This document shows positions 15,073-16,482 of a stretch of DNA of 16,482 nucleotides, in pieces. This DNA is from a virus (taxonomy: Duplodnaviria > Heunggongvirae > Uroviricota > Caudoviricetes): the IMG/VR virus record IMGVR_UViG_2671180460_000014. One strand, 5' to 3'. Made by a program: the position numbers and the translations under genes. Under the pieces are notes generated by a model. The model made no database searches, was not told the origin of the DNA, and worked only from the letters and a program-made list of their open reading frames with translations. The first letter of the stretch is position 1; each line of letters begins with the position of its first letter.

Positions 15073-15198
15073 GGACACAAAAAGGCCTCAAATAAACAGT
15101 GAAATTGAGTTCAGGATTTTTTTGAAAAAATACAACTATATGAAAAAACTTAGAAAACACCAAAAAATCCACAGGATGGCAAAAAATATCTATGAATT

Positions 15199-16482
15199 AT
15201 GGATTTCCAGTTATATTCGCTCGGCGCAGCGTTAGTGTTTCATGAAATATTTTTTCCTGAATCATCAACGGCAATGGCGTTAATTTTGGCAATGGGAACC
15301 TACGGTGCAGGTTATGTGGCGCGTATTGTCGGAGCATTTATTTTCGGCAAAATGGGCGACAGAATAGGGCGTAAAAAAGTGCTCTTTATTACCATCACCA
15401 TGATGGGGATCTGTACCACCTTAATTGGTGTGTTACCGACCTATGCACAGATTGGTGTTTTTGCCCCCATCTTGCTGGTGACGCTGCGTATTATTCAGGG
15501 GTTGGGTGCAGGTGCGGAAATTTCCGGTGCCGGTACGATGCTGGCGGAATATGCACCAAAAGGTAAGCGCGGAATTATCTCCTCATTTGTAGCTATGGGA
15601 ACTAACTGCGGAACCTTGAGCGCAACGGCAATCTGGGCCTTTATGTTCTTCATTCTCAGTAAAGAGGAACTGCTGGCGTGGGGATGGCGTATACCGTTCC
15701 TGGCGAGCGTTGTCGTGATGGTCTTTGCTATCTGGTTACGTATGAATCTGAAAGAAAGCCCGGTCTTTGAGAAGGTTAATGACAGCAACCAACCCACAGC
15801 AAAACCTGCACCTGCTGGTAGCATGTTCCAGAGCAAATCCTTCTGGCTGGCAACAGGGCTGCGTTTTGGTCAGGCGGGTAACTCCGGGTTAATTCAGACT
15901 TTCCTTGCAGGCTATTTAGTGCAGACGTTATTGTTTAACAAAGCAATTCCAACAGATGCATTGATGATTAGTTCGATTCTCGGCTTTATGACCATTCCGT
16001 TCCTTGGTTGGTTATCCGATAAAATTGGTCGCCGGATCCCGTATATTATTATGAATACCTCCGCGATTGTGCTGGCATGGCCAATGCTTTCTATCATTGT
16101 AGATAAAAGCTATGCCCCGAGCACCATTATGGTTGCACTGATTGTGATTCATAACTGTGCGGTGCTGGGATTATTTGCTCTGGAAAACATTACCATGGCA
16201 GAAATGTTCGGCTGTAAAAACCGCTTTACCCGGATGGCTATTTCTAAAGAAATTGGTGGTCTTATCGCTTCCGGTTTTGGTCCTATCCTGGCGGGTATTT
16301 TCTGCACCATGACGGAATCCTGGTATCCGATCGCCATTATGATCATGGCATATTCAGTAATTGGTTTAATCTCTGCGCTGAAAATGCCAGAGGTGAAAGA
16401 CCGTGATTTAAGTGCGCTGGAAGACGCTGCGGAAGATCAACCGCGTGTTGTAAGAGCTGCGCAACCTTCCAGAAGTCTGTAA
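15199..16482 (+). CDS. ydfJ: MFS transporter, metabolite:H+ symporter (MHS) family; likely E. coli ydfJ-type gene with a remodelled 5' end
   Basis: 427 aa with multiple TM segments and the MHS signature GDRIGRKK after TM2. The ORF opens directly at the (W)FDF motif of TM1 with an in-frame TGA at 15193-15195 and no good RBS. It is adjacent to a prophage end with stf/tfa, as ydfJ is to Qin in K-12. Identity is from memory and context, not a search. Confidence 0.75.
   Translation: MDFQLYSLGAALVFHEIFFPESSTAMALILAMGTYGAGYVARIVGAFIFGKMGDRIGRKKVLFITITMMGICTTLIGVLPTYAQIGVFAPILLVTLRIIQGLGAGAEISGAGTMLAEYAPKGKRGIISSFVAMGTNCGTLSATAIWAFMFFILSKEELLAWGWRIPFLASVVVMVFAIWLRMNLKESPVFEKVNDSNQPTAKPAPAGSMFQSKSFWLATGLRFGQAGNSGLIQTFLAGYLVQTLLFNKAIPTDALMISSILGFMTIPFLGWLSDKIGRRIPYIIMNTSAIVLAWPMLSIIVDKSYAPSTIMVALIVIHNCAVLGLFALENITMAEMFGCKNRFTRMAISKEIGGLIASGFGPILAGIFCTMTESWYPIAIMIMAYSVIGLISALKMPEVKDRDLSALEDAAEDQPRVVRAAQPSRSL

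Follow-up and report, generated by a model that had tools for sequence, protein, structure and literature searches.

The window (the whole stretch analysed, 16,482 nucleotides) comprises phage structural genes followed by a 5'-truncated host transporter gene, ydfJ', with an AT-rich arm and an attachment core between them (Table 1). In the structural module, the genes for head completion are lambda-like (FI, head closure) and the contractile tail is P2-like, comprising baseplate W/J/I, a fibre with its pair of chaperones, sheath, tube, tape measure, gpU, gpX and gpD. The non-host side of the junction then runs from the tail-fibre gene through the DUF4376 gene, which the source assembly starts at 14414 (14414-14977, 187 aa), into the spacer and the arm. 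A megablast of positions 1-15198 against 50,697 phage records detected no close sequenced relative, returning only short 78-79% matches; the phiP27 tail fibres gave the longest of these, with 5% coverage. The prophage itself, with its P2-like contractile tail and lack of a close sequenced relative, is the only unusual aspect of the locus.

Table 1. Features of the window, ordered from the prophage side to the host side of the junction.
Feature	Position	Strand	Remarks
Prophage structural module	1..12957	+	PHROGs and Pfam matches; gene calls with Pfam annotation
Side-tail-fibre-like protein	12982..14406	+	'Prophage tail fibre N-terminal' domain, Pfam PF08400, E=2.6e-56
DUF4376 protein, putative tail-fibre chaperone	14381..14977	+	Last phage gene; Pfam PF14301, E=1.5e-16
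Non-coding spacer, last tail gene to arm	14978..15056		Common to a subset of ydfJ prophages
DinI-like gene remnant	15014..15067	-	Start codon and about 6 codons homologous (MPQRRP vs MPHRYP); rest replaced; 17-codon ORF
Conserved AT-rich phage att arm	15057..15192		GC 30.9%; arm distal to int (P arm in lambda nomenclature)
Att core region (assigned attR)	15193..15210		Imperfect 16-19 bp, TGAATT(T)ATGGATTTC(CAG); attB/attL/attR alignment
In-frame TGA, phage-derived	15193..15195	+	Closes the ydfJ frame two codons 5' of the ATG
ydfJ'	15199..16482	+	MHS-family MFS transporter gene without its 5' end; retains codons 29-455 and the stop

The initial sequence-only reading had described the DNA upstream of the transporter ORF as AT-rich and continuous with the tail-fibre end of a prophage, and this description holds: the arm that follows the tail-fibre and DUF4376 genes has a GC content of 30.9%, whereas ydfJ has 46.7% and the phage portion 52.6%. 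The arm is 92-95% identical to those of K-12-type Qin, O111, O157 and other ydfJ prophages and recurs across thousands of E. coli genomes, where the matches set in at query position 78-81 (window 15057-15060); the Qin-type arm scores 91 of 142 against that of the window, and the sequence 5' of 15057 is unrelated to Qin. The spacer matches strains E423 (L003) and E300082 (L006) and does not match the Qin or O157 arms. The arm also serves as the upstream region for a DinI-like gene running leftward; this gene is present in the same place as a full-length 80-aa CDS in the O111 and O157 prophages (24-266, minus strand, in L007 and L009). The 'DinI-like pseudogene' that PGAP places 5' of ydfJ' in E423 and 401651 was set aside, as it mostly covers the region upstream of the true DinI-like start (window 15067, minus strand) and only about 6 of its codons are homologous. 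Similarly, GGATTT and core-like repeats in the arm were considered as integrase-binding sites and rejected because they are not conserved in other arms. An Rfam scan of the whole window returned no RNA feature, and the predicted RNA fold of 14960-15215 was unremarkable (z = -1.56).

The same reading had placed a prophage-host junction inside the 5' end of an MHS transporter gene, predicted an att core at about 15190-15205 and proposed an alignment to an uninterrupted ydfJ locus as the check. The window was aligned with attB from the prophage-free strain C21 and with attL and attR from strain 401651, the attL thus coming from a related genome and not from the window's own prophage. The alignment located both breakpoint and core: the core is perfect over 11 bp (TTATGGATTTC, 15197-15207), a stretch that includes the ATG of Met29 and is identical in attB, attL, attR and the window, while the longer 16-19 bp region has one indel or mismatches. 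The mapped region accords with the att of PPydfJ prophages, defined as 18-19 bp (PMC8112680 S7 Fig). Homology of the window to intact ydfJ loci begins at 15193-15197 in both genome search and alignments, and with the query L001:3880-4120 the left-half matches stop at q137-140 and the right-half matches start at q122. Host sequence resumes within ydfJ codons 27-29, and rspB and ydfJ codons 1-28 are absent upstream in the window; with an arm common to other prophages in their place, the proposal that the original 5' end had been replaced by phage DNA is borne out. Since the breakpoint is the same to the nucleotide in thousands of genomes with differing prophages, and since a prophage-free strain carries 28 further codons upstream, the junction is not a product of chance. 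From these alignments, 15193-15210 is assigned as the attR junction of the right-hand end of a prophage at the ydfJ hot-spot, of the Qin/PPydfJ type.

The ORF of ydfJ' has its ATG at 15199-15201, corresponding to Met29 of YdfJ, and extends for 427 codons (beginning MDFQLYSLGAAL) to a TAA at 16480-16482. Sequence inspection agreed with the initial description of this start: the ORF begins at MDFQLY, no Shine-Dalgarno sequence was found at the ATG (GGA, GAG, AGGA and GGAG are all absent from -20 to -4, GCAAAAAATATCTATGA), no in-frame ATG lies upstream, and the frame is stopped at the TGA, which is kept in all six aligned prophage arms. The product scores 453.5 bits against TIGR00883 (cut-off 443.45), with an alignment starting at profile position 7, and also matches Pfam MFS_1 (E=2.6e-37) and Sugar_tr; by its sequence it is an MFS transporter of the metabolite/H+ symporter family (MHS, TC 2.A.1.6), of a sugar-acid type. 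Its N-terminus is incomplete for an MHS transporter, as it starts at Met29. In alignments to the ShiA model, intact YdfJ begins at profile position 12 and the truncated form at 37, and to the ProP model these positions are 22 and 40, respectively. For 11 split loci, the RefSeq annotation of the equivalent gene reads 'incomplete; missing N-terminus'.

In prophage-free E. coli the gene order is rspA-rspB-ydfJ-ydfI, and the intact 455-aa YdfJ of strain C21 starts with MTIEKHERSTKDLVKAAVSGWLGTALEF followed by MDFQLY, the 28 additional in-frame codons being contiguous with rspB. The gene caller of the source assembly reports a 427-aa product, as would be expected if MDFQLY were the true gene start and the upstream sequence the native 5' region of ydfJ. 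The probability of this account is practically negligible: it is refuted by the intact loci, by the att alignment, in which the upstream sequence matches prophage ends and not the rspB-ydfJ spacer, and by the N-termini of orthologues. A full N-terminus is present in 77 of 80 species-representative ydfJ loci across Enterobacterales, and the three exceptions, with Met29 as their first residue, each have the phage arm; prophage-free orthologues beginning at MDFQLY, which the sequence-only reading had named as the finding that would count against truncation, were thus not encountered. That reading had also expected some 20-30 cytoplasmic residues ahead of the motif. The residues missing number 28. 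Residues 12-28 (DL[VI][KRT]AA[VL]SGWLGTALEF) show only three variable positions in the sampled Enterobacterales orthologues, from Serratia to Escherichia, and this near-invariance indicates that the lost segment is more than a cytoplasmic tail. By inference from this conservation and the position of motif A, residues 12-28 would form the start of TM1; the N-terminal hydropathy profile of YdfJ does not fix the TM1 boundary.

Junction, core, truncation, prevalence and the conservation of the lost segment are shown directly, and combined, these results make it highly probable that the window contains an attR produced by site-specific integration into ydfJ, with 5' truncation of a transporter that is most likely inactive. 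In the proposed mechanism, the tyrosine integrase of a temperate phage would insert the phage genome by site-specific recombination into an att site within ydfJ codons 27-33. After the crossover, the opposite prophage end, next to int and beyond the window, would carry ydfJ codons 1-28 together with the rspAB promoter side, and codons 29-455 would stay in the window, fused to the arm. Because Met29 falls within the att core, an ATG-initiated 427-codon ORF survives, and the ydfJ-ydfI part of the cluster is uncoupled from rspAB. Strain 401651 carries a complete, related prophage at ydfJ, in which xis (xisR) and a 431-aa integrase with Arm-DNA-bind_2 and Phage_integrase domains adjoin rspB. For the prophage of the window, the int end lies on another contig, the window starting at the end of LIVI01000020.1, and we infer integrase-mediated insertion of this very prophage from the shared arm and core. 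Phage records were also considered as a source of attP; arm and core matched 23 of them, mostly Stx2a-converting phages. The record inspected, LC727840.1, has host ydfJ' 3' of the arm; as a prophage excerpt with attR in place of attP, it was set aside.

Instead of site-specific integration, an illegitimate event could be proposed, in which a deletion or rearrangement joined ydfJ to a prophage nearby, as prophages at ydfJ are reported to be involved in inversions and deletions and in the replacement of segments (PMC8112680, PMC8767318, PMC9997748) and the DinI-like gene beside the arm has been replaced in the window. Such an origin is very unlikely given the nucleotide-identical breakpoint across so many genomes with different prophages, its coincidence with the core common to attB, attL and attR, and the existence of a reciprocal attL with int and xis in the 401651 prophage.

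The junction and the truncation were already known, from K-12 Qin and from many pathogenic strains, and their recovery here is a rediscovery of a published fact on Qin and ydfJ (PMC6379469): through Qin integration at its 5' end, ydfJ loses its promoter and 28 codons, and ydfJ is the Qin insertion site in four laboratory strains (PMC3032704). In E. coli K-12, W, B and Crooks, where Qin occupies ydfJ (PMC6379469 Fig. 4E; PMC3032704 Table 2), the breakpoint, the 28-codon loss, the 427-aa ORF and the TGA are as in the window. Qin, however, is a decayed lambdoid remnant with ynfT, ydfK, pinQ and tfaQ proximal to the junction, whereas in the window the structural module appears complete, its contractile tail is P2-like, and an additional stf-like fibre and a DUF4376 gene are present. 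The PPydfJ lambda-like prophages of STEC and EPEC (O157:H7, O26:H11, O111, O121, O145) likewise share locus, att core and arm with the window, and their site is used by diverse prophages and is a hot-spot for rearrangements (PMC8112680, PMC8767318, PMC9997748). These prophages often carry T3SS effector loci and occur in tandem clusters (PMC8112680), and they keep the full DinI-like gene, in contrast to the 6-codon remnant and myovirus-type tail of the window.

Additionally, occupancy of the site was surveyed in 5,426 complete E. coli genomes; a junction of this type was present in 3,160 and an uninterrupted ydfJ site in 2,009, so that the site is occupied in approximately 58% and empty in approximately 37%. 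The ydfJ body of the window (1284 nt) is 100% identical to the intact O104:H4 allele L014, which points to a recent insertion of the prophage. K-12-like E. coli and E. ruysiae share 99% identity in the Qin-type arm but only 88-92% in the host flanks, and split and intact ydfJ alleles interleave in distance clustering; together with the identity to an intact allele, these observations indicate that insertion has been recent or recurrent.

For the fate of the truncated gene, the sequence-only reading had named silencing, re-wiring to a phage-end promoter and a pseudogene. A promoter scan of 14300-15500 found one promoter-like site (14987-15015), compared with 1.7 expected from shuffles. The scan thus gives no ground for a phage-end promoter, and as a ribosome-binding site is lacking too, the sequence favours a silenced or non-functional gene without settling the matter. 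As long as the prophage stays in place, the ydfJ' product is most likely either absent or inactive, because the lost residues 12-28 are near-invariant and the phage supplies no N-terminus, ribosome site or convincing promoter; expression and function would both be lost. Other prophages that integrate site-specifically within a coding sequence, namely e14 in icd and Rac in ttcA (PMC6379469 Fig. 4B, C), supply a replacement gene end that yields a full-length or variant protein (PMC6379469). A phage-supplied end of this kind was looked for in the window and is absent, the arm giving a stop and no start, ribosome site or coding sequence.

A contrary account holds that the 427-aa ORF is still expressed as a working transporter, re-wired through late-operon read-through or a weak arm promoter and a leaderless or Shine-Dalgarno-independent start at Met29. 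The same scan detected no terminator-like site from the end of the last phage gene to the start of ydfJ' (14977-15199), so read-through transcription from the late tail genes is possible, and RNA-seq of K-12 lists ydfJ as differentially expressed, so some transcript exists (PMC11430063). The TIGR00883 score of the truncated product also remains above the cut-off. Selection was assessed by pN/pS, polymorphic codons and private changes on 19 ydfJ alleles. All 12 of the sampled split alleles are open and without indels, their pN/pS is 0.019 against 0.015 in intact alleles, and within an all-split clade 16 polymorphic codons have synonymous changes only and 3 an amino-acid change, which is far from the neutral expectation.

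The low pN/pS of split alleles fits continued function, but it would also be accounted for if insertions were recent or recurrent and split alleles recombined with intact ones. Private changes, with synonymous to non-synonymous ratios of 9:4 in split and 17:3 in intact alleles, lean to relaxed constraint in the split alleles, on small counts that carry no significance test. Considering also the missing near-invariant residues, the lack of a Shine-Dalgarno sequence, the in-frame TGA upstream and promoter-like sites no more frequent than by chance, a working 427-aa form is improbable, and an inactive ydfJ' remains the preferred reading.

Regulatory-switch prophages ('active lysogeny') are known, for example Listeria phi10403S in comK, where the gene is split at att and precise excision restores the ORF. 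By sequence alignment, excision at the core would likewise restore the 455-aa ORF of ydfJ. Unlike in active lysogeny, there is no sign at ydfJ of regulated non-lytic excision or of a physiological signal, and many of the prophages at ydfJ, Qin among them, are defective and incapable of excision. There is thus a slim chance that the ydfJ remnant is not dead, either because the 427-aa product is made and selected or because excision-competent prophages act as a reversible on/off switch of the rspAB-ydfJ-ydfI sugar-acid cluster. The former would account for a pN/pS in split alleles as low as in intact ones; under the latter, the ratio of occupied to empty sites would reflect balancing selection and not mere hot-spot usage. 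A link of rspAB and ydfJ to L-gulonate catabolism has reportedly been made (Wichelecki et al. 2014, Biochemistry); our search for literature tying these genes to that pathway found nothing usable, and the link does not enter the argument.

Overall, these results bear on annotation, since the 427-aa 'YdfJ' here and in K-12 is a prophage-split, 5'-truncated gene and not the native protein, and the K-12 427-aa YdfJ often serves as the reference sequence of the transporter. The ydfJ junction is among the most heavily used prophage sites of E. coli, and very different phages share one integration module there. As these prophages separate ydfJ-ydfI, a conserved transporter and dehydrogenase, from rspAB, differences between strains in the substrate handling of the cluster may track prophage occupancy.

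The open reading frame at the right end of the window (ydfJ') encodes an MHS-family MFS transporter. Its product matched the TIGR00883 'metabolite/H+ symporter' model at 453.5 bits (cut-off 443.45), aligning only from profile position 7, and its alignments began at position 37 in the ShiA model and position 40 in the ProP model; the Pfam domains MFS_1 and Sugar_tr were also found. The features described in the sequence-only reading, namely a start at MDFQLY, an in-frame TGA two codons upstream, a missing Shine-Dalgarno sequence and AT-rich phage DNA upstream, were all located where it had placed them, and no Shine-Dalgarno-like triplet or tetramer was present at -20 to -4 of the ATG, where the sequence is GCAAAAAATATCTATGA. 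Additionally, a second-frame ORF with a TTG start crosses the junction, without evidence for being a gene.

When 5,426 complete E. coli genomes were searched by megablast with 14980-15420, three classes of match were returned: a few genomes matched from the first query base, thousands from query position 78-81 (window 15057-15060; 92-95% identity), and many only from query position 214 (window 15193; 98-99.6% identity). Strain C21, a member of the third class, carries a prophage-free locus in the order ynfA-rspA-rspB-ydfJ-ydfI-ydfZ-rspR, where ydfJ encodes 455 aa with the N-terminus MTIEKHERSTKDLVKAAVSGWLGTALEF-MDFQLY..., and six further intact alleles from diverse strains are organised in the same way. 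Because these alleles encode a longer N-terminus, the window ORF is ydfJ without codons 1-28. The truncation that had been proposed stands: prophage-free orthologues do not begin at MDFQLY, and with one genome scanned per species, 77 of 80 loci had the full N-terminus, including Citrobacter, Enterobacter, Leclercia, Klebsiella, Raoultella, Kosakonia, Salmonella enterica subsp. arizonae and Serratia. A start at Met29 was seen in three loci, each with the phage arm directly 5' of ydfJ': the E. coli representative, the E. ruysiae locus and a Caldithrix MAG contig resembling E. coli. Enterobacterales-type ydfJ was also seen on contigs filed as non-enterobacterial (SMXE01000224.1 of the 'Caldithrix sp.' MAG, 'Chryseobacterium sp. 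18061' and 'Vagococcus sp. WN89Y'), which are probably contaminated or mislabelled assemblies; the first combines a ydfJ' protein 100% identical to the E. coli query with a Qin arm.

Of the 28 codons lost, 17 are near-invariant in the sampled orthologues: residues 1-11 are variable, and residues 12-28, DL[VI][KRT]AA[VL]SGWLGTALEF, differ at only three positions, so the lost piece is not a dispensable tail. Judging by where motif A (GKMGDRIGRKK, at 78-88) and the short loop FPESS (at 47-51) lie, the lost segment would take in the start of TM1 and leave the truncated protein with only about 18 TM1 residues; the TM1 boundary is not set by hydropathy alone.

In strain 401651 this site is occupied by a related and complete prophage, in the order ydfJ', DinI-like remnant, P2-like tail module, lambda-like head, lysis genes, Q, replication, immunity, xisR, integrase and rspB. 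The integrase (431 aa; domains Arm-DNA-bind_2 and Phage_integrase) adjoins rspB. In an alignment of attB from C21, attL and attR from 401651, and the window, the host left arm extends through ...GAATTTATGGATTTC and the host right arm starts with TTATGGATTTCCAG...; since the one ends and the other begins there, the core is TTATGGATTTC, which is perfect in all four sequences. Allowing a one-base indel and a few mismatches, the att sequence extends to TGAATT(T)ATGGATTTC(CAG). The core position of about 15190-15205 expected from the sequence alone was accurate. An independent search agreed with the alignment: when a 241-bp intact attB query was compared with split genomes, left-half matches ended at query position 137-140 and right-half matches started at 122, an overlap of 16-19 bp. 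This length fits the experimentally defined '18- or 19-bp att sequence' of the PPydfJ prophages, found at ydfJ in STEC and EPEC (Nakamura et al., PMC8112680, S7 Fig). The Met29 ATG sits within the core, and therefore an ATG-initiated ORF always outlives insertion. The upstream TGA is phage-derived and was kept in all six prophage arms compared.

The AT-rich arm is common to otherwise unrelated prophages of the ydfJ site (K-12-type Qin, O111, O157, E300082 and SCAID). Because the conserved stretch opens precisely with the start codon of a minus-strand DinI-like gene (window 15067), the arm is the int-distal att arm (P arm in lambda nomenclature) doubling as the upstream region of this leftward gene. 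The O111 and O157 prophages have the DinI-like gene at its full length of 80 aa; in the window, about six homologous codons are followed by unrelated sequence, leaving a 17-codon ORF. In related genomes, RefSeq/PGAP annotates here a 26-29-codon 'DinI-like family protein' pseudogene (4071-4157 of the strain E423 locus, 3071-3148 of a second related locus). As the full-length O111 and O157 genes start at the equivalent of window 15067, this pseudogene is mostly upstream region, and the call is probably due to an N-terminally over-extended reference protein. A promoter scan of 14300-15500 gave one promoter-like site, where chance would give 1.7; the stretch from the last phage gene to ydfJ' has no terminator-like site, and an Rfam scan gave no match. 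GGATTT core-like repeats in the arm are not conserved in other arms and were left uninterpreted.

Features of the window at the prophage end and the ydfJ' junction
Feature	Position	Strand	Remark
Prophage body	1-14977		
P2 H-like fibre	4689-5921		followed by two Caudo_TAP chaperone genes
Caudo_TAP chaperone genes	5935-6462 and 6490-7023		tandem, same strand
Lambda stf-like tail-fibre gene	12982-14406	+	'prophage tail fibre N-terminal' domain; follows gpD, at the prophage's extreme end
DUF4376 gene	ends 14977	+	partner of stf-like fibre; last before arm
Promoter-like site	14987-15015		
Second-frame ORF	15029-15235	+	68 codons
DinI-like pseudogene as annotated in related genomes	15050-15136	-	
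AT-rich att arm	15057-15192		30.9% GC
In-frame TGA	15193-15195		
Imperfect att	15193-15210		
Perfect att core	15197-15207		
ydfJ' ORF	ATG 15199-15201, TAA 16480-16482	+	427 codons, start MDFQLYSLGAALVFHEIFF...

The prophage body is the sole element beyond the textbook. It is a hybrid of lambda-like head-completion genes (FI, head closure) and a P2-like contractile tail module (baseplate W/J/I, sheath, tube, gpU, gpX, gpD), with two separate fibre systems (4689-7023 and 12982-14977). No close relative was found among 50,697 sequenced phage records, none of which matches more than 5% of the prophage at 78% identity or above; many E. coli genomes contain similar modules as prophages (85-99% identity). 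In E. coli C5 (NZ_CP010122.1, 3566000-3576500), window 1-13615 has a copy at 99.2% identity, which ends in the stf-like fibre gene and abuts, head to head, a truncated N-terminal domain of the same fibre from another prophage; this suggests that an inversion or recombination event involved two prophages at this domain. Separately, the 'complete genome' of an Stx2a-converting phage (LC727840.1, 46623-50900) contains about 2 kb of bacterial chromosome, as host ydfJ', with a 427-aa ORF at 2243-3526 of that segment, stands 3' of the attR arm. In another 22 phage records the arm matches about as far from the record's end, and these probably carry host DNA as well.

The junction represents the Qin/ydfJ case: Qin, by integrating at the 5' end of ydfJ, is reported to remove its promoter and 28 codons (PMC6379469), ydfJ is where Qin sits in W, K-12, B and Crooks (Archer et al., PMC3032704), and prophages of this locus are diverse and rearranging in STEC populations (PMC8767318, PMC9997748). 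The observation is confirmed and its interpretation supported, and the phenomenon is already known. Unlike e14 in icd and Rac in ttcA, the phage in the window does not repair the gene; its arm supplies no substitute start, ribosome-binding site or coding sequence. Its own integrase would have inserted this prophage, whose int end lies on another contig. At the intact locus rspB and ydfJ are only 57 bp apart, so ydfJ was presumably once transcribed from the rspA promoter; the prophage now parts ydfJ' physically from rspAB. The remnant is probably untranslated or non-functional, and excision through the core would regenerate the 455-aa ydfJ.

Junctions of this type occur in 3,160 of the 5,426 complete genomes (58%), and 2,009 (37%) have an uninterrupted attB. 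The 1284-nt ydfJ' of the window is 100% identical to the intact O104:H4 allele, and split and intact alleles are intermixed in distance clustering. Between E. ruysiae and a K-12-like E. coli, identity is 97-99% over the Qin-type arm and some 1.8 kb of phage DNA next to it, whereas ydfJ' (91.5%) and ydfI (87.9%) show normal between-species divergence, indicating recent horizontal spread or independent integration of one element. From the allele identity, the interleaved alleles and the near-identical arms across diverged hosts, the site has been occupied recently and repeatedly on the time scale of host divergence.

None of the 12 sampled split alleles (window, K-12, O157, O111 and phylogroup-diverse strains) has an indel or an interrupted frame, and the only RefSeq remark for the 11 split loci in RefSeq genomes is 'missing N-terminus'. 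Real decay is occasional: in strain 13081 the gene is split into two places, and two other strains have large deletions. Variation in ydfJ' is far from neutrality, with pN/pS of 0.019 for split and 0.015 for intact alleles, private synonymous to non-synonymous changes of 9:4 (split) and 17:3 (intact), and, in one all-split clade, 16 polymorphic codons that are synonymous only and three with an amino-acid change. This pattern fits either retained function or recent insertion together with recombination involving the many intact alleles. That the 427-codon remnant has some expression or function, or that excision acts as a switch, is considered very improbable; because occupancy is recent and recurrent, recent insertion and recombination with intact alleles are considered a sufficient explanation.
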